A DNA stretch of 32,569 nt, from assembly GCA_051294375.1 (NCBI GenBank), contig JBJCIZ010001663.1, forward strand, positions 1-32,569, written 5' to 3'. Below are positions 667 through 22,558 of this stretch, one piece after another; within the stretch, counting starts at the first letter, position 1; each line of letters starts with the position of its first letter. This stretch comes from Paraspadella gotoi (Eukaryota; Animalia; Chaetognatha). The notes under the pieces are model-generated. The model did no database searches, was not told the DNA's origin, and saw only the letters and a program-made list of their open reading frames with translations. The position numbers were made by a program, and so were the translations under genes.

Positions 667-669
667 GTT

Positions 670-4012: not shown

Positions 4013-4102
4013 CTTGCAGCCGCGTACGCCGTCACAGGAACTTTTCGTCCCATAGTTCCTGTTATTGTTAAAAACGGGAACAGAACTGTGACGACGTACG
4101 CG
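4010..4102 (+). promoter_or_regulatory. Probable programmed stop-codon readthrough signal (UGA-C, 8-nt spacer, stem-loop)
   Basis: gag and pol share a frame and are separated only by TGA 4010-4012; 4021-4037 pairs with 4086-4102 (16/17); inner stem 4055-4063/4073-4081; conserved in copy 2. Confidence 0.8.
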
Positions 4103-7100
4103 CTCCTCGACTCAGGAGCAACCCGCTCCGCAGTCGCAACTAATATCGTCAACAAATTAAATTTGAACCCTTATACGTTATTTACTAATCTGACAACTTA
4201 CGACGCAACCTCGCAAATTTGGCGAGATTTCGTAGATTTCGAAATAAAGAATATGGATAATACCTTTTCAATTGAAATTAAAAAAGCAATCGTCGGCAAA
4301 ATTCTAACTTGTGAAAGCGACAAACCTGTAAAGAATGAGGATATACGCGATTATGATTATATGAGAGATGTTGAATTTATCGAGTTGAAACATGATAATG
4401 TTGATTTGATCTTAGATGCAAGCCTCGCGTCGGAATGGATCGGAGGATCGACACGAGTCGGGCCGCCGGGCTTCCCCACTGCCTTACACACCACATTTGG
4501 TTGGACCCTAATCGGACCAAGTGAAAACGGACGCCAAGGAGAGCATGTTATTAGTTGCCTTGACGCCAACCCCTCAGGTTTGGAAGAACTTGAATTCCAA
4601 ATCTCGAAACTAGAGAAGATGGATTTTTTGATGAAAGAATCCGAACATTATTCGTCCGAAGTGAGTCATCCATCTGCTCTAGATCAATATGCAATAGAAC
4701 AACTCGAATCTGGAACTTTCTTTAATCTCTCCACAGGTCACTATAGCGCCCCAACGCCATGGAAGAAGGGGCGAAAAGCAGCGGCAGAGGAATTCAAAAG
4801 AATCAGAGAAGCCACCATCGCAAGCGCAAAAAGAAGAGCAGTCAAAACAGCAGAAAAATTGGCGAAGGATCCAATACTAAAGAAAGGAGTCTTCGAGACG
4901 ATGCGCGAATGCATGGAAGCCGGCTTTTCAAGTAAAGTGGAAATTGAAAATCTAAACGGCGAATTTCCAGAATACTATACCCCGTTACACATAGTCACGC
5001 GCCCTGACAAGCCCGGTAAATTCAGGATTTGTCAGGATGCAGCCTCGAAAACTCGAGGTACATTTTTAAATGATCACTTAATAGCGGGCCCGGATAATCT
5101 AACTCCGTTATTGGGCGTTCTAATGAGATTTCGAAGAAAGAGAGTAACACTGTCAGCCGACATTAAAGGCTTCTTCCACCAAATTGAAATTGACCCCGCC
5201 GATAGAGGGGCATTCAGATTTTTTTGGTATAGTGACGAAAGCATGACGAAGCTTGAAACTCATCAATCCAACGTACACATTTTTGGCGGCTCTGGTAGCC
5301 CAGGAGTAGCCAACTGGGTGATAAAATACCACATAAAAAAAATCAAAGATGAAATCTCACTCGAAGCCTTTTTATCTATTTTTCTTCAGCTCTACATGGA
5401 TGATCTCCTAGACTCTGTCAGCACGCCGCAAGAAGCTCAACGATTGAGATTAGAACTCACCGACGCACTCAAACGCGGAGGTTTTGAACTCTGCAAATTC
5501 AAAAGTTCAGACCCACGAGTGCTCAAGGATGATCCCATATCAGACGACACTCCTCCAGCCATCTTCCAGGAAACGGACGAGCTCGTCGATGATCTCGAGA
5601 GGATAGCCGAAAATACTTCTCCAGAAAGCCCAATGATCGAGGACCACTCAAGTAAGATTTTGGGAGTAGGTTTCAATTCCGAAAAAGATATATTTTTCAT
5701 CCGTATTACTGAAAAGGCAAAAAAGGAAGCCGTTTCCAGGCGAGATTTTTTAAAATTGGTGGCAAGTGTTTACGATCCATTAGGGTTTGTCGCTCCATAT
5801 ATCCTTAAAGGAAGGTCTTATTTCCAAAAAGCGACAAATGATAAACTTACCTGGGACGAAAAAGTTCCGGAAGATCTATTCAAAAAGTTCGACAAATGGA
5901 GAAAGGATATGGAAAATCTGAAGAGATTCACCTTCCCTAGGTGGACCTCCATATCGGGTCTAAATGTCGCAAAAACACAACTGATTATTTTTGCTGACGC
6001 ATCGTCTACTGGATATGGGATTGTCGCATATGTAAAAAAGATGAATCAAGATGAAGACGAATGTCATGTCTCCTTATTTTATGCAAAATCACACGTTGTC
6101 CCATTGCAAATGCAAAGGACATTGATCCCAGGTCAAGAAGACCATCTTGAGAGCATGCCACGTCTAGAATTAAACGCGGCAAGACTCGCGGCCCAATCCA
6201 GAGATACCATAGTCAGAGAGTCCGGTGAAGAGTTTTGTAGTATTGTAATGCTTACGGACTCAGTTACAGTATTAAATTGGATAAACGATTACACTAAAAG
6301 ATTTAAAACCTTTGAACATTTTAGGCTCAAAACTATACGAAATTTATCCCCAATCCAGGAGTGGCGCCACGTCGAAGGGAAAGAAAATCCTGCCGATTTC
6401 ACCTCCAGAGGCCTTGACGCAAATGATAAAAAATGGCTCACCTTCCATCAAGGACCCACCTGGCTCCGTCGACCAGAAAGCGAATGGCCGACGTCGAAGT
6501 ACCCAGTCAAATCTTCGGCAAAGAAGGAGATGTCCAAAGATAAGAAAAATATTCAAGAAGTCAACTTAGCCGCAATTCATGATGATTGCACTTACTCCCC
6601 AATGGAATTGGTCGTCGTCAACGCCACTCGCACTTACCCAGCGCTTCCGCCATCAAACTCCAGAAATTGGGTGTTGAAAATTACAGACAAAGTATCAGAA
6701 TGGCGACAAAAGGTGAGAAGAATTGCTTATTTTTCAAAAGCTGTTCCCAAACTTTTAAAATTCTTAAAAGCGAAAAAAGAAGGGAAAAGAATTAGAGCCG
6801 AAAATATTTCACTTACTGCCGATGAATTTAAAAATGCAGAAACGAAATTAGTTAGAGCTATCCAACAATCATATTTCGATAAAGAATTCTATGAGTTATT
6901 TAAAATGGGCATTTTGTCTCCCGACGCAAAAAGGGAACTTAGAACCAAAAGCTCAAAAATGATTTCATTAAGTCCGTTTATTGATTCAGAAAATTGTATC
7001 AGAGTGGGCGGCAGACTTGGCAATGCCAAAGATATGAAATTCGAAACAAAACATCCGTTGATCTTGCCAAAGAATGATGAAAATGTAGATTCTTTAATTA

Positions 7101-8203
7101 GGCACCATCATGAACAATTAAAGCATGCTGGCGGTTCAGCTACCTTTCATTCCTTAAACCAAACTTTTGCTTTATTAGGAGGACGAGCAAATGTGGACAT
7201 CATCGTCAAGAAATGCCTCCAATGTCAAAAGGCTCACAAAAATCCAACTCCACAGCAAATGGGACCGTTACCGGAGTTTCGAGTAGAAGCAACCATTCCT
7301 TTTCAAACCACTGGAGTCGACGTTTTCGGTCCCTATAAAGTAAGGAATGCCGGGAGAGGGTATAATAATAAACATGTTCTTCTCCTCACCTGTATGACCA
7401 CAAGAGCCGTGGTTTTTGAAGTACTAAAAGATATGTCAAGTATTTCAGTCATTTCAGCCTTAATAAGATTTCGTTCACATTTCCCAGGCTTGGAGAGACT
7501 CGTCTCCGACAACGGAACAAATTTTAGAGGAATTGACAACGAGCTCAAAAGGCAATTAAGAACAATTCGCCAGGATGAAAAATTCACGGAGTTCATCGCC
7601 TCGAACGACATCAGGTGGGACTTTGGTCCTCCCCATACTCCTCATTGGGGGGGAGTGTGGGAACGCCTTGTAAAAAGTACCAAAAAACATATTACTACTT
7701 CTTTACCTAAAGAGCCTGATCTCGATACCTTTGTCACTATTTTGTGTGAGATCTCTGCCATACTGAATAGAAGACCAATTACACAGGCGCCAGCAAACCC
7801 AAATGAGATTATAGCATTGAGCCCTGAGAATTTTTTATATCCCTACTTGCACGCTTCAACCGCTTTAACTCTTCTCCCTTATGCCCCTACAGTTGGCGAC
7901 ACCCTGCGAGCATCGTGGAAGGCCGTTCGAGATACGGCAGACAGATTCTGGACACGCTGGAGACAAGAATATCTCACGACCCTTCGAAGTCGAAAGAAAT
8001 GGACGACCTCATCCGATAGCCTCGAAATGGGAGACATAGTCTTAATAGAAGAAGAAAATACACCCCGTGACATTTGGAGAATCGGCCGAGTCTTAGAACT
8101 AGTGGGAGAAGACGTTCATAAACGTGAAGCAATCGTGATAACTAGGAACAAGAAGGAGATCCGCCGTCATGTAAAAACTTTGATCAAACTAGAAGTCGAT
8201 TAA
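4013..8203 (+). CDS. pol: Pol: aspartic protease, reverse transcriptase, RNase H, integrase (translated as Gag-Pol fusion)
   Basis: PR ALLDSGA; RT LSADIKGFFHQI and LYMDDLL; RH IIFADAS, PRLELNAA, TDS, WRHVEGKENPADFTSRG; IN HEQLKH..CLQC, GVDVFGP, SDNGTNF, GGVWERLV; C-terminal FWTRWRQEYL. Frame is open from the gag stop. Confidence 0.95.
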   Translation, partial: LAAAYAVTGTFRPIVPVIVKNGNRTVTTYALLDSGATRSAVATNIVNKLNLNPYTLFTNLTTYDATSQIWRDFVDFEIKNMDNTFSIEIKKAIVGKILTCESDKPVKNEDIRDYDYMRDVEFIELKHDNVDLILDASLASEWIGGSTRVGPPGFPTALHTTFGWTLIGPSENGRQGEHVISCLDANPSGLEELEFQISKLEKMDFLMKESEHYSSEVSHPSALDQYAIEQLESGTFFNLSTGHYSAPTPWKKGRKAAAEEFKRIREATIASAKRRAVKTAEKLAKDPILKKGVFETMRECMEAGFSSKVEIENLNGEFPEYYTPLHIVTRPDKPGKFRICQDAASKTRGTFLNDHLIAGPDNLTPLLGVLMRFRRKRVTLSADIKGFFHQIEIDPADRGAFRFFWYSDESMTKLETHQSNVHIFGGSGSPGVANWVIKYHIKKIKDEISLEAFLSIFLQLYMDDLLDSVSTPQEAQRLRLELTDALKRGGFELCKFKSSDPRVLKDDPISDDTPPAIFQETDELVDDLERIAENTSPESPMIEDHSSKILGVGFNSEKDIFFIRITEKAKKEAVSRRDFLKLVASVYDPLGFVAPYILKGRSYFQKATNDKLTWDEKVPEDLFKKFDKWRKDMENLKRFTFPRWTSISGLNVAKTQLIIFADASSTGYGIVAYVKKMNQDEDECHVSLFYAKSHVVPLQMQRTLIPGQEDHLESMPRLELNAARLAAQSRDTIVRESGEEFCSIVMLTDSVTVLNWINDYTKRFKTFEHFRLKTIRNLSPIQEWRHVEGKENPADFTSRGLDANDKKWLTFHQGPTWLRRPESEWPTSKYPVKSSAKKEMSKDKKNIQEVNLAAIHDDCTYSPMELVVVNATRTYPALPPSNSRNWVLKITDKVSEWRQKVRRIAYFSKAVPKLLKFLKAKKEGKRIRAENISLTADEFKNAETKLVRAIQQSYFDKEFYELFKMGILSPDAKRELRTKSSKMISLSPFIDSENCIRVGGRLGNAKDMKFETKHPLILPKNDENVDSLIRHHHEQLKHAGGSATFHSLNQTFALLGGRANVDIIVKKCLQCQKAHKNPTPQQMGPLPEFRVEATIPFQTTGVDVFGPYKVRNAGRGYNNKHVLLLTCMTTRAVVFEVLKDMSSISVISALIRFRSHFPGLERLVSDNGTNFRGIDNELKRQLRTIRQDEKFTEFIASNDIRWDFGPPHTPHWGGVWERLVKSTKKHITTSLPKEPDLDTFVTILCEISAILNRRPITQAPANPNEIIALSPENFLYPYLHASTALTLLPYAPTVGDTLRASWKAVRDTADRFWTRWRQEYLTTLRSRKKWTTSSDSLEMGDIVLIEEENTPRDIWRIGRVLELVGEDVHKREAIVITRNKKEIRRHVKTLIKLEVD

Positions 8204-8727
8204 AGAAACGATGAATCTATCAAAGTCCATTCATTCCTAGCATCGATGGTATGAATGTTCTCTTATTTTATCAAATAAGTTAGTATTAATTACAAACAAT
8301 TCATTTGTACCAAACTGAGTTCCTATTAACCTATTTGTTCACGAGACAAAATTTTTCAACAATTCGCCCATCGTTTGGAAATTATTCGTTTGAAATTTAA
8401 AGTCTAGCCATAGGTCAAATATCAAATTCAGATATTTAGTTCGAATTGTTAAATTCGTTGTATTTAGTCTTCGTTCAAATTGAGTACAGAACACTGATCT
8501 GTCTAACGGAAGTTAATTGGCAAGGCAGAGCGCAAAAAATTAGAATGTTTAAACAGTTATCTAGTAGATCGAATAAGTTGTTGCTATTAGAATTAATCAT
8601 TTGATTACAAAGGGAAATAGCTAATTACAACCAAATACCTATATTCAATTACTTACCTATCCAAAACAGATTGTTAGATTTTACTGACTCTCTTATTCAA
8701 GGTCACTTGTTGAAAGCACAATCCAGG

Positions 8728-9330
8728 ATGGAATCGACGGAAATAGTCACGATCGAAGACGAGCCTCTAAGTCAAAATGAATCAGTGTCTGCTCCCTCGG
8801 AGATGAAATCATCACCGCCCGCGACTCCAGATAGGAGATCGTCGTCACCTGCATCTCCAGAAGCAAGGTCACTCTCGCCAACGTCCCCAATATTCTTATC
8901 GCAGCCTGAATCCGAAGCCGCACCTCCATCAAGTTCCGCGTCAGCTGCGGAAATAGATCGTGAAGACATAATCGAAATCCTTGAAGTCTCAAAATGGGCG
9001 CCGCCTCCTTCATCATCATCATCAGAAGAGGACGAAATCATCGTTTTGACGAAGTCAACAAGCGCAGAGTGTTTCGCCGAACTACAAGAAAAGTGGAATG
9101 AAGAAAGCAAACGCGAATTCCTCCGACAACAACGAAAGAAAGAAGAAGCCAAGAAGCGCCTTCAAAGTTGGAAGAAGGAAGTCGCCCGCCTTCGCGAGGA
9201 TTTACAATGCGAAAAGGAACGGAGGATCAAGAAGAGCCTACGGGAAGAAGTCCGAAAGATCAAGAGAGGCAAGAGGAATCGCGCTCTCTTAGCCAAAATT
9301 CGCGAGATGGAAGAAGCGGAGGAAATATGA
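8728..9330 (+). CDS. Accessory A1 (200 aa): Ser/Pro-rich N-half with SIM-like motifs, basic coiled-coil C-half
   Basis: First ATG at 8728 aligns with the homolog at 27278-27898; strong protein conservation with many synonymous changes. Confidence 0.85.
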   Translation: MESTEIVTIEDEPLSQNESVSAPSEMKSSPPATPDRRSSSPASPEARSLSPTSPIFLSQPESEAAPPSSSASAAEIDREDIIEILEVSKWAPPPSSSSSEEDEIIVLTKSTSAECFAELQEKWNEESKREFLRQQRKKEEAKKRLQSWKKEVARLREDLQCEKERRIKKSLREEVRKIKRGKRNRALLAKIREMEEAEEI

Positions 9331-9886
9331 ACTAATATTGAAAATCATTCAACTGTCTCTTAGTGACACATTTACATTGCTTCATGTTCATCATCGTTCA
9401 GCCAATCCCATTGTTTTATGCATTGTTATTTCAACCGATGGGTAGATCCATCATTTCTATCTCTCTACGGGTAAAGTCGAAGAATGAAGGTTTAAACAAG
9501 AGCCGTATAACTAGAATACGACGACTACTAACAAAGTGAAGAGAGATCATTTGCGATGAAAAATTGAATCAGAAAAAATAAATTGAGGAGATAGGGCATC
9601 GTTAATGTTAATAAAAACTGTTATCAAACAAACAAACTTTGTTTTCTCTAAATATATATACACGAGGGAAAAGTGTGAAAAATTAAAATCTCTCTCTTTG
9701 CCGCCTTCTGTCGTTACTCGATTCTGATGTCTATTCATTGAAATAATTTTTTTCTGTTTAATGTTCCTCCTCAGGCACGAGTCGTTAGATTAAGTAGAAA
9801 ATAATTTAGGACACAGTCAAACCGCTTCAATTAAGCTTCCACGTTCGAGTCAAACTTCTTTACGGACGACCACTCGCGGTCTCGGA

Positions 9887-10592
9887 ATGTCTTCGGACGA
9901 ATCAACCAGACGAGCAAGAGCGACCGCTGCCAGGACGTGCGGAAAGCCGATAGCGAGGGTATCTCCGTTCCATCCTGGGGAACCGTTGCCTCCAGGCGTG
10001 GAGTTGCCGCCAGTCGTCGCGCAACCGCGTCCAACTCGAATAGTCAGACCAACCGTCGTGCAGCCGCGCCAGGCCCAATTGGCTTCGCAAGCCACCGCGC
10101 CATCAAGCCGAGTTCGAGCGGTATCTCCAATTGCTGCGCCGCAGCAGCAATACCAAGGCTACCTGCCAACTCCTGAACCTCGATACAGTAGAAGTCCTTC
10201 CGAGCGCAGACGATTAGGCTACCCTCCTCTCATGGACGATTCGGACCCCGATATCGTAAGAATTTATTATATGGAATAATGCTGACAAACAATATTTTTT
10301 ATTATCCGAAAAGATGCCGCTAAACAATATTTATTATAGAAAAGATGCTGCCAAACAACATTTATTATAGGAAAGATGCTGATAAACAATTATTTCCTAG
10401 GAAATCATTTTCGACTCGAATCAACGCGCCAGAACGGAACGCAGATACGAAATCGTCAGAAGCGTGGAGGCTACGATCAGCGACTTACGCGAATCGTTGA
10501 CGCGCGGACGTCAGGAAGAAGCTGGGAGGGCCAGAGAGAATCCTAGGCCACGAGTGCCAGTCAAGGAGAGACTTGGACGGCGTCCCTATTAA
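9887..10592 (+). CDS. Accessory A2, two exons join(9887..10255,10401..10592), 186 aa, Pro/Arg-rich
   Basis: Phase-0 intron GTAAGA...TTTCCTAG; exon 2 (EIIFDS...DLRESL...PVKERLGRRPY) is homologous to exon 2 of copy 2. Confidence 0.8.
10262..10390. repeat. ~31-bp degenerate tandem repeat (4 units) forming most of the A2 intron
   Basis: Unit approximately ATTTATTATAGGAAAGATGCTGACAAACAAT; two related units at ~28652-28710 in copy 2. Confidence 0.8.
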
Positions 10593-10762
10593 AACAAGTC
10601 CAATTTAGACTATTGGAGCCAGAAACATTTATAATCAGCAGACGTGATCGTTGAATTAACATGATTCATTTTTAAAATCAGCAAACGTTACCGTTGTTTT
10701 AAAACGATTTCAGATATTAATTAAGACTCATTATCTTGAACACTCAAACATTCCGGTAGAGG

Positions 10763-11031
10763 ATGGAGAAGAAATTTAAGTCGAACTCGCAACCGACGTC
10801 GACGGCATCGTTAGCTCCGAACTCATCGGAAGTGACGATAAACGTGAGTGAAACCTGAGGAAATAAATAAAAGTAATAAGTAAACTAAATAATCGCTTAC
10901 CTGTTCAGTGGACCCCGGTGGAGACGCCACTGCCTCGACGACGCCTAGCAACGCCTCTCGCAGGAACGAAAATCGGACGCATCATCCCGCCTCACGTCAT
11001 GTCATCAGACATTTATTGCAAAACACCATAA
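10763..11031 (+). CDS. Accessory A3, two exons join(10763..10843,10909..11031), 67 aa
   Basis: Phase-0 intron GTGAGT...CTTACCTGTTCAG; 27-codon exon 1 and C-terminal MSxDxYCKT conserved in copy 2. Confidence 0.75.
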
Positions 11032-11286
11032 GATGCTCATTTATCATTATTTCGTGCAAAGCTCACGAATGAATGAGAGAGAAAAAACTCAGTGTTCTAA
11101 ACAGTGTTTAATCCGCTCTTTTTCATTACCATTTGAATAACTTCCAGTATATTTACTGAATTTACCCAAAAATCTTGGTGTCACGAGAACACGGACTTCT
11201 GCATACTTGAAACTTACCTGACGAGAAAAGAAGCCAAGCCCAAGAGACGTCGATCCAGCGTAAACCCGGAAAGTCTTGGCGAAACC

Positions 11287-11526
11287 ATGTCATCGAGACG
11301 AGTGCTCTTCAATAGGATGATCGACCTCATCCCGATGGAACATTTAGCAGAGTTTCACGAGAGATATAATCATTGGTACGACGAGACAACTCTCAAGATG
11401 GACCAAATCGAATCCTTGAACCTATCCGAGATAAGCAAAGAACTTATAATGCAATTGGCAATGAAAAAAAGGAAAGAAATGCTGAGGAAAATTATTATCG
11501 ACCTGCGGAATAAAGCCGAGAAATGA
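11287..11526 (+). CDS. Accessory A4 (79 aa, helical; paralog of A5)
   Basis: Homolog at 29752-29991 is almost identical over the first ~33 aa despite many synonymous changes. Confidence 0.88.
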   Translation: MSSRRVLFNRMIDLIPMEHLAEFHERYNHWYDETTLKMDQIESLNLSEISKELIMQLAMKKRKEMLRKIIIDLRNKAEK

Positions 11527-11595
11527 TTAGTATATCATCAATTTAAAATCATTCTGTTGATTTATTTACTCTCAGTTCATTATTAAGCAAGCAAA

Positions 11596-11895
11596 ATGCA
11601 AAGGGAACATGTGGAAATAGTAGGAGAGCTCCATATGCGGATCCTACTTGAACTTGTTCCAGTTCAACACAAGGGAGAATTCATAGTCGAGTTCGGTCTT
11701 TGGAAAGAAAGAACAGAAAAGAAACTAAACGATACGGTGGATGAACTGATGACGCAGTATGTTGCGATGGATCGCGTTCCTACAGCATCATTGGAAATAT
11801 TCAATCGCATTGAGCGGGATGCCCTCGAAGACATTCACGCCATCATCAGGGATTTCAACTACCGTGCTCAATCCCGAAGAGAGGAACAACGATGA
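11596..11895 (+). CDS. Accessory A5 (99 aa, helical; paralog of A4)
   Basis: Homolog at 30086-30376; upstream acceptor CTCTCAG ending at 11575. Confidence 0.88.
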   Translation: MQREHVEIVGELHMRILLELVPVQHKGEFIVEFGLWKERTEKKLNDTVDELMTQYVAMDRVPTASLEIFNRIERDALEDIHAIIRDFNYRAQSRREEQR

Positions 11896-11996
11896 ACATC
11901 TCGTGAAATGACCAATCTAATAAACTTTGCGCCATAAAATTAATGAACTTGTAATGATAAATTAAAATTAACGATTATGCTTGTCTATTCAGGAAA

Positions 11997-12197
11997 ATGA
12001 ATTCATTCAATAGTTATACGTTCGGAAGATTCGGCATCTGTTACGATGAAATCCACAAAGCCCCGCGCTCTGATCCGGAAAGGCCAAGCGCGAAACGGTC
12101 TCTTTCCCTCCTGAAAAGTAAAAAGATGATCGTAAAAACATTTGTACCCAGTCAAGAAATCGAAAAGTCGATTACAAAATTCACAAACTCTAATTGA
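11997..12197 (+). CDS. Accessory A6 (66 aa, basic)
   Basis: Homolog at 30501-30707 (FGxFGICYxExH, SDPE, SAKRSL conserved); acceptor TATTCAG ending at 11992. Confidence 0.8.
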   Translation: MNSFNSYTFGRFGICYDEIHKAPRSDPERPSAKRSLSLLKSKKMIVKTFVPSQEIEKSITKFTNSN

Positions 12198-12279
12198 CTC
12201 TTGTTTATTTTCACCAGAGTTTTTTATTGCAGTTCCAACCCCATTGCGAAACAAATTCATTTTCGAATTTACCTACGAA

Positions 12280-12627
12280 ATGTCCAACAAAATTGTTTGG
12301 TTGTGGGACGACTGGAGAAGCTTGAAGCTCCAAAAAGAAAGCGAGAATAGAAACCAAAAAATCTTGGACGTAATTCTCCGAGAAGCAGAATCTAATCTAT
12401 CCTACAAACCCGATTGGATAAAGGAGATACTTTTTGGCGAAAACAAAGGCCCTGAATACGAAGCTGAGAAAGCAATTCGCCTGGCAAGAGATTGGATGAA
12501 GACAGCGGAGATCCTGAAGAAAGAAAAACCTAAGAGATCCAAAACCTTCGAAGCCATCATCAAAATGATGCAAGAACGCATCGAGAAACAAGAGGCTGTT
12601 TTAGAAAAACATTTTATGGATGAATAG
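12280..12627 (+). CDS. Accessory A7 (115 aa), family Y
   Basis: ATG at 12280 (MSNK) aligns with homolog at 30769-31107; DW-x21-RE motif. Confidence 0.87.
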   Translation: MSNKIVWLWDDWRSLKLQKESENRNQKILDVILREAESNLSYKPDWIKEILFGENKGPEYEAEKAIRLARDWMKTAEILKKEKPKRSKTFEAIIKMMQERIEKQEAVLEKHFMDE

Positions 12628-12708
12628 AATTTACATGAGTAATGCAAAATTCATATCAAAGTATTAATCAAATTATTCAATTTTGTCGTTACAGCATTAA
12701 CAGATACA

Positions 12709-13092
12709 ATGCAGAACAGGCCTTCACCTACCTCGATCTACTCCAAAGAACATTTGGAGCTTTGCGCCTTCAAACGCAGGAAGACGGATGAACTGGAAAA
12801 GCGTCTCCCGGGCTGCGTCGAAAAGTGCATCGAATGGACGCAGAACTATATAGCAGAGATTGAAGAACTGCGCAAAGCAATCGCCAAAAGAAAAGCGAAA
12901 AATCCGACAGCGAATGTTGAAAATCTCATCGAAAGAGTTAAGAAAATCGAGGAGAAGTTTCCGACTCTGGAGCGGTGGAAAGAAGTCTATTTGAACAGAG
13001 GCTGTATTTTCAGCCATGAAAGCTTGGATTCAATAAAGGATAAGATTCCTCCAAAGGAGAGAATAGAAATTGTGGGATTTTCGATCATGTGA
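12709..13092 (+). CDS. Accessory A8 (127 aa), family X
   Basis: Same-length homolog at 31205-31588; LPGCVEKCIE and W-x7-GCIF motifs. Confidence 0.88.
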   Translation: MQNRPSPTSIYSKEHLELCAFKRRKTDELEKRLPGCVEKCIEWTQNYIAEIEELRKAIAKRKAKNPTANVENLIERVKKIEEKFPTLERWKEVYLNRGCIFSHESLDSIKDKIPPKERIEIVGFSIM

Positions 13093-13202
13093 AAAACTAC
13101 AAGGAATTTAAGTGATTTATTAATCTGTTGCTACAAGATATGTTCGTTTATTTAAAAAAAAAAAAACTTTTTTTCCTTTAGCCAGCGACTATTCACTCAA
13201 GA

Positions 13203-13547
13203 ATGTCCGATCCAGTGGGTGGTGCCCGATTCCTCCAAGAATGGAAACGTCTATTTGACAATGAGGGGGAAATGAAAGATAAACATTTTGGAAGGGATCT
13301 CAACGTGAGAGAACAAGAGGCGAAAATCAAGCGATATCCAGAGTGGCATAAAAACAAACCCGAAGATTACAAACTAGAGTTAAAAAAGGTCGCCGAAGAG
13401 GACGTCCGCAACGCAATAGGATGGAGAAAGACGGCAGTAATGCTCAAGCTCTACCGAAAGGAAAAAGCCGAAACTTACAGTGAAATCTACAAAATGATTG
13501 ATGAGCACATTCAGGAAAAACAGGAAGAAATCCTGATCCTGTCATAA
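13203..13547 (+). CDS. Accessory A9 (114 aa), family Y
   Basis: Homolog at 31690-32034; EW-x21-RE motif. Confidence 0.87.
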   Translation: MSDPVGGARFLQEWKRLFDNEGEMKDKHFGRDLNVREQEAKIKRYPEWHKNKPEDYKLELKKVAEEDVRNAIGWRKTAVMLKLYRKEKAETYSEIYKMIDEHIQEKQEEILILS

Positions 13548-13613
13548 CGCGATCTCAATATGAACTTACCTTATTTATTTACTATGTTTATTCTTAGGAA
13601 TTTTCAGGACAAA

Positions 13614-13934
13614 ATGCAAGGCTGCTGCGGATATTTGGCTGATTGTTATAGAGACTTCCGAATGTTCATCATAAGACGAACGGAAGAGTTAAACAGTGAA
13701 GCTCCCGATTGCGTCGAAAAGTGTTTCGACCTCATAAAGAGTTATTCGTCGGAATTGGAACAACTACAGGGAGTCATCAAAGATCCGGGAAATGATGACA
13801 AAATCCATCAAGAACGAATCAAGTATCTGGAGGAAGAAATTTCCTTCGTCGAGAGGTGGAAAAAGATTCGACTCACCCAGGGCCGGATTTTTAATAAAGA
13901 AAGCATCGGAATGTTGCCAGAGGAACTTCCGTAA
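13614..13934 (+). CDS. Accessory A10 (106 aa), family X
   Basis: ATG at 13614 follows acceptor TTTTCAG (13607) and aligns with homolog at 32121-32441. Confidence 0.87.
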   Translation: MQGCCGYLADCYRDFRMFIIRRTEELNSEAPDCVEKCFDLIKSYSSELEQLQGVIKDPGNDDKIHQERIKYLEEEISFVERWKKIRLTQGRIFNKESIGMLPEELP

Positions 13935-14025
13935 AATGATAATTTACATGCAGGATTATTCCATCTGTTCCGTTAGTATTCGTTTGGTTTAAAATGTATT
14001 TACCCAGTTCAGTTACTCATCGACA

Positions 14026-14379
14026 ATGTCCCGGATGAAGTCTATCGCTGAGATCCAAGACGAAATTACTCGAGACTGGGAGAAAGCAAGGAACATCGAT
14101 GACTACTCTCAGAGAAACGCCGCGGTCGAAAGCATCGTTTTTCGGGAGCATGAAATTCGGATTCAAAAGAAAAAGGAGGAAAGAGAAGAAAGAATGAAAC
14201 ACAGCAAGGCCATTGAGGCGTCCGAGATCTACAAAGACATCCAAGAGCTGGAGGATCGCCGAAAATTAGCAATGGACGCAAAACGTAAAAGGCCAAGTCT
14301 CGGTGATATTTACGATGAAATTGAAGGCCGAGCAAAGAAGTTACAGGATGAAGCAAAGGAGCGTTTGATGAAAATTTAA
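14026..14379 (+). CDS. Accessory A11 (117 aa), family Y
   Basis: DW-x21-RE motif; N-terminus KSIAEI recurs at 32538 in copy 2. Confidence 0.82.
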   Translation: MSRMKSIAEIQDEITRDWEKARNIDDYSQRNAAVESIVFREHEIRIQKKKEEREERMKHSKAIEASEIYKDIQELEDRRKLAMDAKRKRPSLGDIYDEIEGRAKKLQDEAKERLMKI

Positions 14380-14436
14380 AATTTAGTTTTATTGATTCTT
14401 GTCTAATGGTACGAATTTACTTACTTTAGTTACAGA

Positions 14437-14739
14437 ATGTTAACCGATTTTGAGTATAACAGGCGGGAAATGCGACTCTTTGCCGGTTACCTGATCCCAA
14501 GATCTCTGGAAGGAGCTTTGGAGGAGCTGAGAAGTTTTGAAAAAGAACTTTTTCAAGAGGAACAGGAAATTGAAAAAGGAATGAAGGGAGAAAAGACAAA
14601 GCGAAGCATTGAAAGCCACGAAGGCAGATCAGAATACTTACAAGATCGCATCAAGATGCTTAAAAAATGGCCAGATGTGTTAGAGCAAGAGGGAAAAATA
14701 TTCACCTCAAGATACTACAGGATTCCAGAATATTGTTAA
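14437..14739 (+). CDS. Accessory A12 (100 aa), family X
   Basis: IPRSLEGALE and W-x7-GKIF motifs; acceptor TTACAG ending at 14435. Confidence 0.8.
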   Translation: MLTDFEYNRREMRLFAGYLIPRSLEGALEELRSFEKELFQEEQEIEKGMKGEKTKRSIESHEGRSEYLQDRIKMLKKWPDVLEQEGKIFTSRYYRIPEYC

Positions 14740-14785
14740 TTATTTACTTACTCTTTCATTTTCAGTCTCTCACCAACATTTCGAG

Positions 14786-15049
14786 ATGTCCGAAGTAAGA
14801 AGGAACTTTAAAAAGTATGCCAGGGAAAACGCAATATTTTGGTTACCTTCTAATCTCGAGGATGCACTGGACGAGATCCGGAAGAGAGAAAACAACCTGG
14901 TTCAAAGAATTCAAGAATACGGAATCCATGGCGCAGATGAACGTGAATTCAAGACGATCGCACAACTCACCAGATGGGCAGGGATCTTGGAGGAGCAAAG
15001 AGAGATCTTTTCTTTGGAAACCAAGTCGATAATGAATTTGTGTCTTTGA
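14786..15049 (+). CDS. Accessory A13 (87 aa), family X
   Basis: LPSNLEDALD and W-x7-REIF motifs; acceptor TTTTCAG ending at 14765. Confidence 0.78.
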   Translation: MSEVRRNFKKYARENAIFWLPSNLEDALDEIRKRENNLVQRIQEYGIHGADEREFKTIAQLTRWAGILEEQREIFSLETKSIMNLCL

Positions 15050-15114
15050 TTCATACATTACCGTTTGAGTTTGTGAACTTAATTTATTCAAATAATGAAC
15101 TTACCTTTAGCAAA

Positions 15115-15450
15115 ATGAACATCGAAGACTTTAATAGAGTCCGTGATCAGCTGAACAAAGACTGGACTGATTTAGATCAAATTCCGTGGAGTCAAGAGAA
15201 GACAAAATCCATCATTGATCTGATGATCAGAGAGGATGCTCTATGGAATCGTCGAGAGGAAGAGATTAGAAAACAAGTCCCGCGAACGGTTGCTGAACTC
15301 AAAAGGGAGATGAACGAATCGGAAAACGTTGTATGGACGATAGGGGAGGCGCTAAAGGTTAAGCCTGAGAATGCAGCGGTCTACCTTCAATTCCTCAAAG
15401 CGGAAAAAGAAAAGATAAGAAAACTCAAAAATGAAAACGCTCTTCTATAA
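15115..15450 (+). CDS. Accessory A14 (111 aa), family Y
   Basis: ATG at 15115 follows acceptor CTTTAG (15110); DW-x21-RE motif. Confidence 0.8.
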   Translation: MNIEDFNRVRDQLNKDWTDLDQIPWSQEKTKSIIDLMIREDALWNRREEEIRKQVPRTVAELKREMNESENVVWTIGEALKVKPENAAVYLQFLKAEKEKIRKLKNENALL

Positions 15451-15556
15451 ATTCATAATTGGCCGATGCTATTATTTTGTTCATGTGGAGATAAATTATT
15501 GCTCAATGATTCTTTGTTATTAATAATTCTTGTTTATTCCATCAAGTTGTTAAAAC

Positions 15557-15907
15557 ATGTCAAGGGAACAGGACTCTGACCACTGGATTCGCGGTCATTG
15601 CCAATTGACTTATATCATGAAGAATCGAATGAAACAGGGAATTCGTCAAAGAATGCCAAGTTCCGCGGAAGAATCGTTTGAGCAATTCGAAAGTAATTGC
15701 TCAGAAATGGCAAGAAATGAAATTATCATGGAGACTAAATTCAACGAAAATCCTGAAGCAGACGTGGAGTCCGAAAAGAAGAGAATCCAAATTCTCGACA
15801 AGGAAAATACAAACCTTATCCTTTGGGCAAAGTTTAAGCTTCAGAGAGGAGATTTGTTTGCGGAAAAAACTTTATCTGAAATATCCGCTAAATTTCGTGA
15901 AAATTAA
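15557..15907 (+). CDS. Accessory A15 (116 aa), family X
   Basis: MPSSAEESFE and W-x7-GDLF motifs; NPxAxVE shared with A8. Confidence 0.8.
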   Translation: MSREQDSDHWIRGHCQLTYIMKNRMKQGIRQRMPSSAEESFEQFESNCSEMARNEIIMETKFNENPEADVESEKKRIQILDKENTNLILWAKFKLQRGDLFAEKTLSEISAKFREN

Positions 15908-16227
15908 TAATTGTGCATTATTGGATCATGATATTATCGTCATTGAATGTATCATTTTAATTGTTGGCTGAATAATCGATTACCTATCTATAAAAACTTA
16001 TCTTTAACAGGACATCTTTTTGATAATAAGTGCAATCGCACTAAAATTTCAATTCATTCTCATCCATAAACTCGAATAAACTTTCAATATTGAAAACACG
16101 CGCAACGGGAACGAATCCGCTTCAAATTCAGGAAGCATCAAATCCAAGGTGATTAATACTTAAAAATTACTACATAAAAATACAACAATTGTTCAAATAC
16201 TCACAAGTTAAACTTACCTATGTTCAG

Positions 16228-17583
16228 ATGCTTAGCACTCGCGACGCGATGTGGGGAAGTGACGAACTTTTGAATCTTTCTCTCGACGTCCAAGGAGAAG
16301 ATTACGCCTCCATATTCCCGCAGAATTGCGCAAACCCGGATGAGATAGCGGGCTTCAGCCGAAGGGACCCGTTAAGTCTTAATACTCCCCCAAATCCCAA
16401 CACCCTCTTCAACTCAAACGCCACTCCTGTGAGCAGCACCCCAATTCCCTCTTTTATGGAATTATCGGAGGTATTTAAATTGGGAATTGTCTGGATTGCT
16501 ATTTGTTATATATTTATACTATACCTGAAATATTATTTGCAGCCAACTCTTCTTCAGCGTCTTCCGTTGAATGACGCACAGGATTCATCCTCGAACGATG
16601 GAACCCTTCCTTACGACATTCCGCCCACGCCCAAAACTCCTCCCAATTTGCCCACGACGTTGTTCGATCCGCCGACTCGTAAACTGCCGCCAATCCCAAT
16701 GAAGAACGGAACGATAGATACGTCTCAATGTAATAACAATCTTAGCCTTCTCGCCTACAACGATGAAAGAATCCCGTTTATCATTGGAACAACCGACGAA
16801 TGGAAATTCAGATCGGACGTTCCACTCTCGGGCAAGGTGGGGAAATGGATAAAGACATGTCGACGCAATTGGCGAAAAGTAGCGAGGAAGCGCGGTATCG
16901 ATTATATCAAGTTCGTTTTCGAAAATTTTGGTCTCCTCGCCAATCCCAGTGAACCCCAAGACGAGAGACTCCACTTACCTCCCAGCGGTGTAAAAAATCC
17001 GACGACGACGAAAAGAAAGGTCTTCGTCAAGCAGCCGACGGCGTCAACATCCTCGTCATCCATTATGGATTCGTCGGCGTTCGGGCCCCCGCTAGCATCG
17101 TCATCTTTTAACGACATCTCAACGGAGCCGAAAAAAACCCGAAGCGACGAAGTCCGTCGTCTCCTCGCCGAAAAAGAAACTCTAAAATTAGAGCGGGATA
17201 AATTTAAAGATCGTGCGGCGAAATTAGAAGAAGAACTCGCGAAGGAAAAGAAACTCCGCGAACTGGACCGTGATCGTTTCGAAGAAAAGGTCAATAAGAT
17301 AAGAGAAGACTCTGATAGGCGGATCGACCGTCTGACGGAGACTCACCTCCACGAAATAAAGAGCTGGCGAGAAGCTCTCTGCGCTCCGCAACAATCCTCA
17401 AAATCTTCGAAAGGCAACGAGAAAAGAAGTGAGTCGCCTAAAATGCGCGTACACGGTGAGCCGTTTAGAATCGCAGATACTCGTCCCCACTTACCCGTTT
17501 TCGATCCTCCACCCCATCTCCAACATTTGACGAAACCCCCCCGTCAGTCCCCACCCCCTCGTAAAATTCAAAAGAAATATTGA
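16228..17583 (+). CDS. Accessory A16 (451 aa unspliced; 427 aa if the in-frame 72-nt intron 16471-16542 is removed): Pro-rich region, small Trp/basic domain, coiled coil
   Basis: Long ORF; ATG directly follows acceptor TGTTCAG (16227); AT-rich GT...TTTGCAG segment inside; AATAAA hexamers downstream at ~17828, 17848 and 17905. Confidence 0.8.
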   Translation: MLSTRDAMWGSDELLNLSLDVQGEDYASIFPQNCANPDEIAGFSRRDPLSLNTPPNPNTLFNSNATPVSSTPIPSFMELSEVFKLGIVWIAICYIFILYLKYYLQPTLLQRLPLNDAQDSSSNDGTLPYDIPPTPKTPPNLPTTLFDPPTRKLPPIPMKNGTIDTSQCNNNLSLLAYNDERIPFIIGTTDEWKFRSDVPLSGKVGKWIKTCRRNWRKVARKRGIDYIKFVFENFGLLANPSEPQDERLHLPPSGVKNPTTTKRKVFVKQPTASTSSSSIMDSSAFGPPLASSSFNDISTEPKKTRSDEVRRLLAEKETLKLERDKFKDRAAKLEEELAKEKKLRELDRDRFEEKVNKIREDSDRRIDRLTETHLHEIKSWREALCAPQQSSKSSKGNEKRSESPKMRVHGEPFRIADTRPHLPVFDPPPHLQHLTKPPRQSPPPRKIQKKY

Positions 17584-18004
17584 AACGATGCTTACCTTCT
17601 ATATTTGAACTCATTCTATATCGTTATTATATTTGGCGTCAGTCTGATTTGTAACATAAATAATTAAATTTGTTTAACTGACGCGATATCGCATATTGTT
17701 GAGCAACGTTATACTGTAAATAACAATTAAATTAACTCACCGTCTCAAATCGCGGTTATTCATCTAATTCCAATTGCCTATTATCTTGTATTACGATTAT
17801 TCATTAATACTTACCTCCTATATGGCAATAAACATTAATGTCATTCAATAAAGTGTAAAAACAATGGATGATGGGGGGTTGCTTGCCTGTTTCCTTTGCT
17901 GAGTAATAAAACTTGGACAACGTAGTAAAATATAAAATTGTAATTTTTCAAATAGAAATTGACAGTCGAGGAAAGATAATTCAAAAAATTAGTTTACCCC
18001 TCAC

Positions 18005-18017
18005 AAAGGGGGGAGAA
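18005..18017 (+). other. Polypurine tract-like run AAAGGGGGGAGAA followed by TG (second, upstream PPT candidate)
   Basis: 13 consecutive purines followed by TGAGA, 577 bp upstream of the LTR defined by repeat homology. Confidence 0.45.
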
Positions 18018-18188
18018 TGAGATCCCGTGTTTGAGACTTACTCCAAACCAAAACCTCAAGCAAGTACTAGCAACTCGCATAATTTGTGCAGGGATAAGCT
18101 AATTTTAATTCGGGCCCGTCAAAGCCGAAGTCCTTGATCCAGTTGCGGAAAAATCGACGGTGGGAGCGGACCTGTCCAGACGAAGGCG

Positions 18189-18338
18189 CCGACGGAGCCG
18201 CAGATGGGACCTCCGACGGACCGCAGATGGAACCTCCGACGAGCCGCAGATGGGACCTCCGACGGACCGCAGATGGGACCTCCGACGAGCCGCAGATGGG
18301 ATCGCAGATGGGATCGCAGATGGGACCGCAGATGGGAC
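18189..18338. repeat. GC-rich tandem repeat (23-bp then 12-bp period) containing 8 CGCAGATGG cores
   Basis: CAGATG at 18201, 18224, 18247, 18270, 18293, 18305, 18317 and 18329. Confidence 0.92.
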
Positions 18339-18584
18339 TGCCAACGGGCTCGCGGACGGAATTATCAACGTTCAAGATCGGGTTGGGAAATCACAGCCGC
18401 GAAAGGGGGGAGTTATTGCAGCATTGCAGCATCGGGAAATGCAGAGCCTTTGGGACGGGGGAGTAAGAAGGAGAGATGATGAACCTACCTCCAAGATGAC
18501 GCAGTCTGAAATGATTTAGATGTGCCGCTATGTCTGCGCTTCCTTTATTTGGCAACTTTGACATATAAGTATTTACAATGTTCC

Positions 18585-18594
18585 AAGGTGGGAG
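18585..18594 (+). other. Polypurine tract (AAGGTGGGAG) immediately 5' of the central LTR
   Basis: Purine-rich 10-mer abutting TGTAAC at 18595. Confidence 0.65.
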
Positions 18595-18983
18595 TGTAAC
18601 AATAGGCGCTAACATAGTGGTACGAGCGGTGAATGAGATGGAACCGATGATCACCTGTTTCCTAATCTTGCCTTACTTTCGCCCTCTACCGTTCTTGGTT
18701 CCAGCTCATTCTCCGATGGAAGGCCGAATCGTAAACATCGAAAATAATAATTTTCTACTATTTCACAAAAATGTAAATATTTAATTAAATATTTATTTAT
18801 TATCGTAATTATTATAACTTAAGAATTAATTATTAAATTAATTCTTCCTTCCATTCTAGGTTTGAACAATTCCATTTCTCGTATTTTGGAACGCAGCGAA
18901 AATGTACTCGTCTTCTAAAATATATCTTGGTAGTTCTACATTAAGTGGATTATATTTAGGTATTTTAGTATAGATTAGTTACA
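18595..18983 (+). repeat. Central LTR (389 bp): 3' LTR of copy 1 and 5' LTR of copy 2
   Basis: Nearly identical to 178-555 (a 1-bp indel, a ~12-bp indel and very few substitutions); TGTAAC...GTTACA termini. Confidence 0.8.
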
Positions 18984-19098
18984 TTTTTACATTCAAACAT
19001 TTTTTAAGTAAATATTAGTTAATTAGTTAAAATTAAATTAAGACTTTAAACTTGAGAATTATAACTTAGAATGTAAAATTAATAATAGGTAAACTTTT

Positions 19099-19278
19099 CT
19101 CGACAGTGGCTCGCCACGGTAAATGCCGAGGGAAGTAAAACGGAACCGCGGGGAGATTTATAACTCACCGCGGGCAAACTTCGTCATTTGAGGACTTTAA
19201 CTCATTGATGAAGTAGTTAGGGAAGAAACCGATTGTAATAAAATCTGAATTTCCCCCTCAGATTAAGAAACATTCGGT
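19099..19278 (+). other. Structured 5' leader RNA of copy 2
   Basis: Same hairpins as 670-850 with compensatory substitutions. Confidence 0.75.
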
Positions 19279-19371: not shown

Positions 19372-22300
19372 ATGGATAGCTTTAACGAGGATAGCGATAG
19401 TGTTTCGGGTAGAGAATTTAGACATTTTTTAACTGAATTTAAGCAGAAGTTAGATAAGTTTAGTTCGAATTACCGATTGTATTTATCTAACAAAACCTCG
19501 GCAAACTTACGCGAAGCTCTCAAAACGCGCGAGAACCTCGTTGATCTCGTAAGGGATCTGTCGGGCGGGCTCCTAAACCGTCCAGACTTGAAAACGCGGC
19601 GCGCGGAGGGTCTTCTGTGTGAGGCTGAGGAGTTATTATTACGTTGTCCAAATATTGATATTTCTGAAATGAGTGACCCCGAACCCATCGAAACGAGTGT
19701 TCGCGATAGGCCGATTGAATCATGTTGCATTGATCCTGTTTCTACGTCGGTTCCTGTAACTAATCCGGTTCCTGTAACTAATCCCGTTTGTGTTGATACG
19801 CCAGCCGTCATGTCCGTAGACAAAATTAATCCTACCATTCCCTCTGTCGATCCCGATTCCGACCCACACCCTGTCCCCGCCCGTGTGTCCAGCTGGGTCC
19901 AGGAGGCCGCCGCCAATCGCGGGAGAACGCCGTCCGCCGATTCCTCCGAGAAGACCGAAGATGACAGTCAATCGGGAACGACGTCTTCAGGGTCCGGTGT
20001 ATCGAGGCCGTCACGCAAGGCACAGCGGGAGAGATTAATTAAAGAAGGTGAGGTGGAGGACCGTCTGTGCAATTTCCGTCGAAAACTCGAGCGAATGGAG
20101 AACGAGCAAAACCGTAAAATGATTGAGTTGAATGAAGCTCGTGACGAAATGAAGAGAATGGAACGAGAGGCAGAAATTGAGAGGATTGATATTAAAAGTC
20201 AATATGAAGAAGAGGTCGAAATTCTTGAATTAAATGTCTCTCTGATCAGGAACGACGCGGAACAGAAGAAACGCGAGAGGGCCATTCGGACGATAACGAA
20301 CGTGGAGGAACCTCTTCCCGCAGCGGCGCCGTCGTATCCAGCCCACTCAACCGAGACGGAAAATCCACGCACGCAGAATCGGTCGCGATCCGTTGCCGTG
20401 GCTACGACAACGCTGCCCCGTTCAAAGTCAGCGGGGAGCCGCCCGTCGGAAAACCAGCGCGGAGCCGTTACTAAGGTTACGGCGGCTTCGAAGGCGCCGC
20501 GACCTACAACGAGAGTCCCGGTGCGAACGAATGAAGCCGTGTCGGGGGCGCCGGCGCCAAAGACGCCGGCCCAAACGCCCGGCCAAGACGCGGCGCGAGT
20601 ACAACGAGGACCGCTCAACCAAAATTTACGTGTTGTACCTGTTTTGCATGATGTTGATCCCTGTTTTGCCGTGCCTATTCCTTCTGCAATTTCGAGTGAA
20701 TTACAAAATGAGAATTGTGTGTCGAAAGGTTATTTGAATGAGAATGAGAATCTAGTAGAACGAATCAGTGCCTCTGTAAGGCCGTCTGCTGCTGTGTCAC
20801 CGCCCTTTGTTGCGAATCCAGTTGATTGCACGGATCCGATCATGTCAGCTCAGCCAGGCGTTTCCTCTTCGTCGCCTCAGTTTAAACAGCAAGAGAATAT
20901 TCTGTCGATGATTCAGGCAGCGTTGTTGCAAGCTATAACGCCTTTGTTTGCGGCGCAAAATGCTATGATGCCATCTGTAGCGCCGCCAGTTAATGTTATG
21001 ATGCCATCTGTAGCGTCGCCAGTAGCGCCGCCAGTCAATGTTTATGACGCCTTCTGTAGCGCCGCCAATCGCGTCGCCGGTTAACGTGACGACGCCGCCC
21101 GTAGTGCCGCCGATCGCGCCGCCGGTTCCGTCGGACGACCTCGCCCCGCCTCTAGTCTCGGCTCCAATCACGATCCCTCCGTCGCCGGGTCCCGAAGCTG
21201 CAGTGGATCTAACGGTCCCGAAAACCGTGGTTTATCCCTCGAGACCACCCACACCCCGTCCACCACCCCAGGTACCGACTCGAAACCGGAAAAACAGGTT
21301 CTTAATAGAAAAAACAAATTAAATGAGATTGAACCCATTCCAAACGTTATTAATGACGATATACCTCAACTTAGTGACGACGAAGTATCTATATGTTCGG
21401 ACAACACTCACCGTGTCGGATCCATTGTAGCACCCACGTCAGAGGACGGTCCGTTGGCGCAACTTTGTGCCATTCAGCTTCAGCAACAAGCTTTCTCACT
21501 GATGCGGCAAAAAAGGCCAAAACTCAAATTCTCCGGAAGGGATCGTCGAGTCGATTTCGACAACCAGCTCGCCCTTTTCAACACCCTCTACAGCATTCCG
21601 GGAATCACCAACGAGATGCTGGGTTGGGGAATTAAGGGAGTACTTCGCAGGTGACGCCCTTATAATTATCCAACAGTACGAGTTGGGAAGTGACTACTGT
21701 AGATCGTTAAAAAAGATTAAAAAAAGCATTGAAAGGGCAATTCGGGAGAAAAGCATATACAGCTAGACATTTACTGGATAATTTATTGAAAGGTTCAAAA
21801 GATCAGTAGCCGAGATTCGGCAGGCCTAAAAACGTTCATACTCGAATTAGAAAAAATTTATTTGCGAGCAAAAGAAACGAATAGAGAAAAAACATTTGCA
21901 ACGCAAGAAATATATACCGAGATCTTGTCGAAAAAGGCCCCGCATCTGGGAAATGCATGGGCGAAAAGGGCCGTAAAAAAGAAAATGGAATGGTTAGAGA
22001 GAGAGACTGATGACGAAGATGACGAATGTGATTTAGACCCCACGTTCGAAACGTTTTATTAAATTCCTTAAATATACGGCTGAGATATCTGAAATGGGTT
22101 CTATTTATTCAGGGTTCGGCGCCCCGAGCGAAAGCAAGACGCCAAACGCGGGACCCACTGCCACTTCAACGCCAAAACTCATCGAAAGCCGTTCCCAGTC
22201 CGCTTTGCAGCCGTCGCAGCAAAATCGGCGAAACCCACGTCAATGCTGAAAAGCGCAGATACAACGCCAAAATTTCCCCACCCCAACGCCAATCCCATGA

Positions 22301-22558
22301 CGCACGCTCCAAGGACCCCGTCAGCAGGTGACATGCTATATGTGCAGCGCAAACCATAAGCTGGAAGCTTGCAGAAAGTATCTGAATCTCGTGATTGAAA
22401 AAAGGTGGGAATTCATCAGAAAAAATAGTCTATGCCATGTTTGTTTGAGGCGTGGCCATATCACTAAGGAATGTAAGAGTTTACTAGGTTGCCGAAAATG
22501 TGCCGGCCGTCACCACGTCTCCGTGCATGCAGAGACGCCGGCCGCAAATTCTTCTTGA
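19372..22558 (+). pseudogene. gag: gag of copy 2, broken by several small indels (possibly sequencing/consensus errors)
   Basis: ORF fragments 19372-21084, 21038-21322, 21454-21654, 21862-22062 and 22328-22558 tile the copy-1 Gag; several breaks fall in homopolymer runs. Confidence 0.8.

Follow-up and report, generated by a model that had tools for sequence, protein, structure and literature searches.

Bel/Pao elements (Belpaoviridae) are long terminal repeat (LTR) retrotransposons of metazoans, and three zinc knuckles in Gag are one of their features. It is rare for a eukaryotic retroelement to have more than one to three additional genes, since each of them needs its own capped message. In the adenovirus major late unit and in HIV, one leader is joined to many alternative acceptors; these are exogenous viruses with graded, weak acceptors, and adenovirus also uses alternative poly(A) sites. 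As for spliced leader (SL) trans-splicing, the accessible parts of the published accounts describe SL systems in calanoid copepods, tunicates and acoels, C. elegans operons whose spacers are mostly 50–200 nt long (PMC7668243) and which require a U-rich (Ur) element hybridizing with the SL RNA (relayed by PMC11155486), an association in Ciona of weak upstream donors with more trans-splicing (PMC11155486), and an LTR element, Cer1, which uses SL1 for its accessory mRNA (PMC3315495). The subject here is a stretch of 32,569 nt from the chaetognath Paraspadella gotoi (contig JBJCIZ010001663.1, hereafter the window), which consists of two tandem Bel/Pao LTR retrotransposons sharing one LTR. Element 1 (copy 1; 178–19105, plus strand, 19 kb) is complete and contains, in this order, an LTR, a TGG resembling a primer binding site (PBS), a leader, gag, pol, an accessory region, a polypurine tract (PPT) and the second LTR. 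Its accessory region, about 10 kb between pol and the 3′ LTR, holds 16 short, co-oriented, plus-strand open reading frames (ORFs A–P). Element 2 (copy 2; 19372–32569, plus strand) belongs to a diverged subfamily with 69–82% nucleotide identity to element 1 and ends at the window edge, with ORFs A–J and the start of K.

The explanation tentatively preferred for this array is an SL trans-spliced polycistronic operon carried by a retroelement and served by a putative SL of the host. That is to say, the 16 genes would be transcribed as one polycistronic RNA, and the SL small nuclear ribonucleoprotein of the host would cut and cap it at each unpaired acceptor, so that single-gene mRNAs are released. 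The motif CTTACCT, which is dispersed in the spacers, would pair with the 5′ splice site of the SL RNA, a role that has been reported for the Ur element of nematodes. Genes B and C would additionally be cis-spliced, and the unspliced RNA would serve both as genome and as gag-pol message. A more specific form, namely a mobile operon built from duplicated acceptor-plus-ORF units, with spacers seeded with perfect complements of the SL 5′ splice site that would recruit the SL ribonucleoprotein of the host, is considered unlikely. The sequence itself shows the acceptors, the ATG-free stretches behind them, selection, growth by duplication and the CTTACCT motif.

Acceptor-like sites were graded with an ad hoc score, not trained on the host, for which at least 5 was taken as the threshold. 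The preliminary description had listed 21 AGs; all 21 are present and are YAG sites (Y, pyrimidine), and 16 of them score at least 5, compared with 3.7% of the 947 AGs in gag-pol. When the 62-nt windows before 25 of the 27 starts were compared with dinucleotide-preserving shuffles (9887 and 28201 were omitted, their AG lying further upstream), 15 windows reached the threshold against a mean of 6.9, and the mean acceptor score was attained by none of 2000 shuffles. Among the reverse-complement windows only 1 of 25 reaches it, so the enrichment is strand-specific. Operon features are found here, in that the genes are co-oriented, the spacers are short and acceptors precede the downstream starts, and 19 of the 27 acceptors chosen by rule for all starts score at least 5, the other 8 starts having only weak AGs. 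The idea that nearly every ORF has an acceptor ahead of it therefore stands for most of them, the weak cases (3.6–4.6) being 11287/29752, 10763/29214, 14026, 15115 and 15557. The AG at 13607 had been taken as the counterpart of 32104, and this pairing has to be corrected, as the homologous AG is 13597. Of 13 copy-1 AGs tested, 5 are aligned base for base with copy 2, and the others have an AG nearby. Another early proposal was that splicing at these sites does not join the ORFs into a single protein; the AG-to-ATG distances, which have no common phase, agree with it.

Strong acceptors are distributed along the whole array, with no weakening from 5′ to 3′ (10.7 at 13181 and 9.9 at 14765), and such a distribution would suit independent use of each site. 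Eleven spacers measure 46–110 nt, and the spacing can be called operon-like because their median of 81 nt fits the C. elegans range given above. Moreover, only 1 ATG occurs in the 1111 nt between AG and start, where 16.3 would be expected (10.9 counting out-of-frame ones only), while 62 occur in the 4215 nt upstream of the rule-chosen AG. New 5′ ends therefore seem to form near the YAG sites, and scanning across the spacers is unlikely; the depletion fits an acceptor or a transcription start alike. The in silico case for functional acceptors ahead of most ORFs is good, and reinitiation, like scanning, is disfavoured as a way across the spacers. In the set of 23 units used for several of the counts below, one copy-2 acceptor was placed at 32524/32525 rather than 32523 or 32528, and the ATG test followed a separate rule. 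Run X1 (contig-only, of guessed RNA origin, 9% of words) was compared with 640–13140: none of the 9 listed joints falls at an accessory acceptor, 6 of the 79 loose ends are listed and none is at an acceptor, and 85 of 118 records are less than 90% alike, resembling many diverged copies, so that this run gives no evidence either way on splicing.

The accessory genes, all on the plus strand, are arranged as follows. Acceptor 8701 (score 5.3) precedes ORF A (8701–9330; start 8728, 200 amino acids, copy 2 at 27278), whose dN/dS is 0.06. Acceptor 9774 precedes the two-exon ORF B (9774–10592), with 9887–10255 as first exon, a predicted intron at 10256–10400 and an Arg-rich exon 2 reaching 10592. ORF C (10763–11031) also has two exons, with a predicted intron at 10844–10908 and an exon dN/dS of about 0.23. 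ORFs D (11287; weak AG 11147) and E (11596; AG 11575) lie within 11287–11895, are under selection and form paralog family 1, matching each other with a phmmer E of 3e-5. Acceptor 11992, aligned in both copies, precedes ORF F (11992–12197; start 11997). ORFs G–O (12217–15907) start at 12280, 12709, 13203, 13614, 14026, 14437, 14786, 15115 and 15557, with AGs at 12217/12232, 12694, 13181, 13597, 14012, 14429/14435, 14765, 15110 and 15546, and belong to two interleaved helical paralog families. Acceptor 16227 precedes the single-copy ORF P (16227–17583; 451 amino acids), which contains a possible in-frame 72-nt intron or transmembrane (TM) segment at 16471–16542.

Ten ORFs have a full partner in element 2, and for these dN/dS is 0.06–0.23 or synonymous sites are saturated (pS 0.66–0.86), while the spacers align at only about 44% between copies. 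Judged by this comparison, the accessory ORFs are real genes under purifying selection, with synonymous sites near saturation. Since the ORFs form three paralog families, the array has grown by means of duplicated spacer-plus-ORF units. Both modelled families are predicted to be helical; the model of ORF H (pLDDT 77) is helical throughout and has no match in PDB or BFVD (Foldseek, E ≤ 0.001). The homolog search with alignment A2 and with ORF A found none, the A1 profile gave 2 matches, both rejected as unrelated repeat proteins, Pfam returned nothing over cut-off for 15 accessory ORFs, and the Atlas search for accessory homologs gave no usable match.

The word (A)CTTACC(T) is the exact complement of the 5′ splice site AG-GTAAGT and is by far the most enriched word of the spacers, dispersed on the plus strand over 8652–17816 in excess of chance. 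Exact CTTACCT begins at 8652, 10896, 11213, 13565, 15100, 16213, 16974, 17591 and 17810 in copy 1 and at 29344, 29494, 29659, 30743, 31655 and 32456 in copy 2, all on the plus strand. Exact matches to the motif number 18 in the window (17 plus, 1 minus) against 2.2 expected, and near-perfect sites in 30 spacers number 19 against 1.3 in shuffles; the spacer set behind the motif, poly(A) and initiator counts included stretches later identified as exon 2 of ORF B. For 9 of 23 acceptors the motif is found in the preceding 100 nt, where 0.6 would be expected; the LTR and the leader lack it, and in gag-pol it is no more frequent than chance predicts. Because its positions turn over between the copies, it is being maintained by selection. 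As a branch point, CTTAC was rejected: 12 of 28 lie within 16 nt of the next YAG against 30% in the null (p 0.11), and CTTAC is found 21 times, followed by CT in 14 of the 21, with CTAAC and CTGAC found 4 times each. CTTACCT is reminiscent of the pairing with SL RNA in which nematode Ur elements are reported to engage.

Two predicted cis-introns are conserved between the elements. ORF B has a phase-0 GTRAG...YAG intron at 10256–10400 (28639–28724 in copy 2), followed by a homologous exon 2 in both copies, and ORF C has one of the same type at 10844–10908 (29295–29356 in copy 2), by whose removal the product is extended from 31 and 33 to 67 and 65 amino acids. Inside the predicted intron of B, a 31-bp tandem repeat present four times (10262–10395) creates several alternative YAG sites, and element 2 has fewer copies of it. 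In the intron of C (10844–10903), CTTAC may pair with the intron's own donor, 8/8 in copy 1 with G-U counted and 7/8 in copy 2, as judged by eye. A third candidate is a 202-nt gag intron (AAG-GTAAGG...TCTCTCTGATCAG) at 1611–1812 (homologous 20048–20249, plus strand). Its donor outranks all others of gag in either copy and holds the sole AGGTAAG on the plus strand of the window, and its acceptor lies within a 33-nt identical run, the longest of N-terminal gag. One X1 contig joins exactly the 1611 and 1812 sites, a weak case with a depth of 3.2, 30 letters on the short side and 80% likeness, the letters between being not known. The predicted product would consist of the first 223 Gag residues and a short Arg-rich tail. 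It recalls CERV of Cer1, a Gag-sharing export factor according to the accessible part of PMC10309623, and is offered as a lead only. In ORF P, the 72 nt at 16471–16542 are in frame, have GT...AG ends and reach an AT content of 75%, the remainder of the ORF being at 50%; if retained, they would encode a hydrophobic TM-like segment.

Several findings weigh against the SL-operon explanation. Even when scored laxly, the motif does not precede 11 of 23 acceptors, its distance to the AG ranges from 12 to 71 nt, and it is also found downstream of some acceptors, in the intron of C and three times past the last ORF. The arrangement of nematode SL2-type operons is not found either: the Ur hexamer TAYYTT is not enriched (9/23 against 8.0), and, unlike in nematode operons, A[AT]TAAA precedes few spacers (3 of 12 for E–P of copy 1; 2 of 7 for copy 2). 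In addition, cis-splicing acts, by prediction, on the same element. The positions of the motif could equally fit antisense U1 sites, and it is possible, though not probable, that CTTACCT represents U1 donors of the antisense strand, which would splice antisense or read-through RNA across the accessory region or shield it from early cleavage, for instance blunting small-RNA silencing; this concerns the motif alone and is compatible with any of the expression mechanisms. Independence of position, GTGAG variants, a slight excess in accessory ORFs (19 against 12.8 ± 3.1) and a minus-strand pyrimidine tract-CAG-GTAAGT conserved in both copies at 11217/29663 speak for it, while minus-strand acceptors are not enriched (42 against 51.5), gag-pol has no excess of minus donors (20 against 22.7), and no relevant paper on such a feature came out of one literature search. 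A multi-exon antisense gene is not supported, again because minus-strand acceptors are not enriched. The LTR as an SL RNA gene of its own was also rejected, since no AT4-6G follows within 70 nt of the donor at 660.

That donor leads to another possible, if somewhat doubtful, explanation, in which one non-coding LTR leader exon (donor 660, 930 or 532) is alternatively cis-spliced to each acceptor, after the manner of complex retroviruses and of the adenovirus major late unit, and which requires no special host. The preliminary description had left the choice between this and SL trans-splicing, starting from a conserved AG-GTAAAC at 660–665 (plus strand; also GT 19089). The donor is indeed present in U5 in both copies, AG-GTAAA being conserved with the conserved block starting at the AG; it is weak, agreeing with the U1 consensus at 5 of 7 positions as 357 and 930 also do, and is situated 5′ of the PBS-like TGG, 16 nt short of the LTR end. 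Because it lies at the LTR end, its conservation is inseparable from integrase and primer-site constraint. That splicing there would drop the primer site and the leader agrees with its position upstream of both. None of the 9 listed X1 joints occurs at 660, where only 20 nt upstream are covered and acceptors only to 13140. The scarcity of internal poly(A) signals noted above, the conserved predicted cis-introns, the weak X1 joint at the gag intron and the Oikopleura Tor3a env, cis-spliced from an LTR transcript according to the accessible part of PMC4402516, all favour a cis-spliced leader. Against it, the candidates 660, 930 and 532 are all weak and 9–15 kb from the array, with stronger conserved donors in gag (1611/20048) and pol (6713/25263), another at 10844 and many acceptors in between; the last ORF would require skipping about 15 strong acceptors, and CTTACCT would be left unexplained. 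Within the accessory ORFs there are no plus-strand donors scoring at least 6; this, like the weakness and remoteness of the LTR donors, speaks for the SL route. A third route, which the earlier pair of choices had not included, is an internal promoter for each ORF or small group, the YAGs being initiators, or in mixed form a promoter before D with splicing downstream. A start site would likewise yield an ATG-free stretch, ORF D is preceded by weak AGs only, in either copy, the initiator TCAKTY is matched at 4 of 23 sites, and Tor3b/4b env offers a precedent in the accessible part of PMC4402516; this route is nevertheless improbable, with 19 of 23 sites lacking the initiator, a TATA-like box at −20 to −38 in 1 of 23, and spacers of 46–110 nt whose U-rich tracts stand directly before the YAG. 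It is very improbable that the sites have no splicing role and are by-products of AT-rich spacers, the ORFs being reached by reinitiation or leaky scanning. The ad hoc nature of the score, the lack of a junction at accessory acceptors among the 9 listed joints of X1 (640–13140) and the shift of some AGs between copies could be cited in its favour; dinucleotide-preserving shuffles fall short of the signal, and in 17 of 23 spacers scanning ribosomes would be caught by ATGs that come before the AG. Mixtures of mechanisms account for the remainder.

With regard to the coding core of element 1, gag (941–4012, plus strand) encodes 1023 amino acids with three C-terminal zinc knuckles and ends in TGA; its Pfam matches, DUF1759 and zf-CCHC_3, are weak and below cut-off. 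Pol (4013–8203, plus strand) has the order protease, reverse transcriptase, RNase H and integrase (PR-RT-RH-IN), with Pfam Peptidase_A17, DUF5641, RVT_1 and Integrase_H2C2. This order with Pao-type domains, together with the three gag knuckles, TG...CA LTRs, the PPT and the PBS-like site, places the element in Bel/Pao, and PF05380 is present in 120 of 120 pol homologs among the matches listed. At 4004–4031 the gag TGA is followed by CTT, and the copy-1 pol carries on without a change of frame; several relatives have pol ORFs whose N-termini are similar to what follows the gag stop, which suggests that stop-codon readthrough between gag and pol may be a trait of the clade. In copy 2 (22550–22600) the reading goes out of frame soon after the gag TGA; gag of element 2 is frameshifted (about 21080–22600) and its pol is open. 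In the RT-RH tree (115/121 sequences), pol clusters with 44–46 environmental proteins that are 35–46% identical. Among 25 distant Bel/Pao loci (4 metagenomic and 21 from a genome scan; 24–43% identity), none has a comparable array, many contigs being too short to tell, and an LTR-like pair ends 47–1200 nt past the pol match in 9 of the 25. A scan of viral contigs for relatives with flanks found none. The Bel/Pao elements L005–L025 are on contigs filed as bacterial genomes or metagenome-assembled genomes, most likely as contamination from a host animal.

The 5′ LTR of element 1 (TGT...CA; 178–676, plus strand) was delimited by the self-match to 18595, which begins exactly at TGT. The identity of the two LTRs is 98–100% over most of the length and 72% in two blocks; in 600–660 against 19030–19089 they are near-identical until about 600 and then about 72% alike. 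The shared LTR looks like a recombinant of two subfamilies or an assembly chimera. In the PBS-like TGG and structured leader (678–940, plus strand), 5 of 62 predicted pairs are changed on both sides between the copies, two sequences being compared, the single-sequence folding z is −1.64, and Rfam gave nothing at E ≤ 1. The PPT and the 3′ LTR of element 1, which is also the 5′ LTR of element 2, occupy 18586–19105 (plus strand), with a GTGGGAG-TGTAAC junction that is identical in the relative L004. Inside the LTR (404–461 and 18833–18890), A[AT]TAAA is followed about 25 nt on by an AG ending at 431, with a score of 9 among the window's strongest acceptors, and downstream of it, at 455, by a Sm-site-like ATTTTG. 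This AG might serve the RNA of the element as an SL acceptor, or it might fall at the poly(A) site. A second PPT-like run followed by TG is located roughly 580 nt upstream of the true PPT and LTR; the stretch (18008–18594) has 23-bp and 12-bp tandem repeats and may be the leftover of another LTR. The flank upstream of the 5′ LTR contains a 49-bp direct repeat (16–111), and 9370–9660, where the contigs of run X1 have high depth and several loose ends and which copy 2 lacks, probably represents the insertion of a small repeat.

Taken singly, additional ORFs, a spliced env and the use of SL are already known in retroelements. New beyond the preliminary description are the CTTACCT motif, the two conserved cis-introns, the ORF paralogy in three families and the stronger gag donor. 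The significance lies in an element that keeps 16 genes under selection, with no detectable homologs, whose sequence hints at how the limit on extra genes is circumvented. If SL trans-splicing were true, it would support cheap growth of gene arrays and mobile elements that exploit or spread operons, and CTTACCT would offer a direct test of pairing between SL RNA and substrate in a new lineage. If the motif did have the SL-pairing role, this would be a selfish mobile operon and an independent origin, outside nematodes, of a role-reversal trans-splicing signal. If cis-splicing were true, an LTR retrotransposon would show splicing complexity on the scale of adenovirus.

In comparison with known systems, the literature search, outside which most subscription papers lay, found no LTR element with a 16-gene array having an acceptor per ORF, nor the CTTACCT motif. 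The element shares with Bel/Pao the PR-RT-RH-IN order, Peptidase_A17, DUF5641, three gag knuckles, TG..CA LTRs and the PPT junction, and differs in the roughly 10 kb with 16 ORFs after pol and in gag and pol being parted by one in-frame TGA. Terminons, Burro, Ogre and fish foamy-like endogenous retroviruses are likewise large and have extra ORFs, some coiled-coil; in the accessible parts of PMC6431247 and PMC5408684, they have RTs of other classes, the ORFs they carry in addition are small in number, fused or identifiable as enzymes, and an acceptor-per-ORF array is not described. In Oikopleura Tor, a downstream ORF is expressed through LTR cis-splicing or an internal promoter, as far as the accessible text of PMC4402516 goes, and the difference is that Tor is Gypsy-like with a single env ORF. 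Nematode and tunicate SL operons have in common with the array co-oriented genes, short U-rich spacers, acceptors ahead of the downstream starts and a pre-mRNA element that can pair with 5′ splice sites, whereas they are host loci and not mobile. Nematode operons carry a poly(A) site and, some 50 nt upstream of the acceptor, TAYYTT (PMC7668243), neither of which is regular here, and tunicate operons have little or no spacer (PMC7986045). Finally, in Cer1, a Ty3/gypsy element of C. elegans, the accessory CERV mRNA is SL1 trans-spliced and cis-spliced and the genomic RNA is unspliced, according to the available portions of PMC3315495 and PMC10309623; it belongs to another superfamily, and its one accessory mRNA stands against 16 cistrons in the present element.

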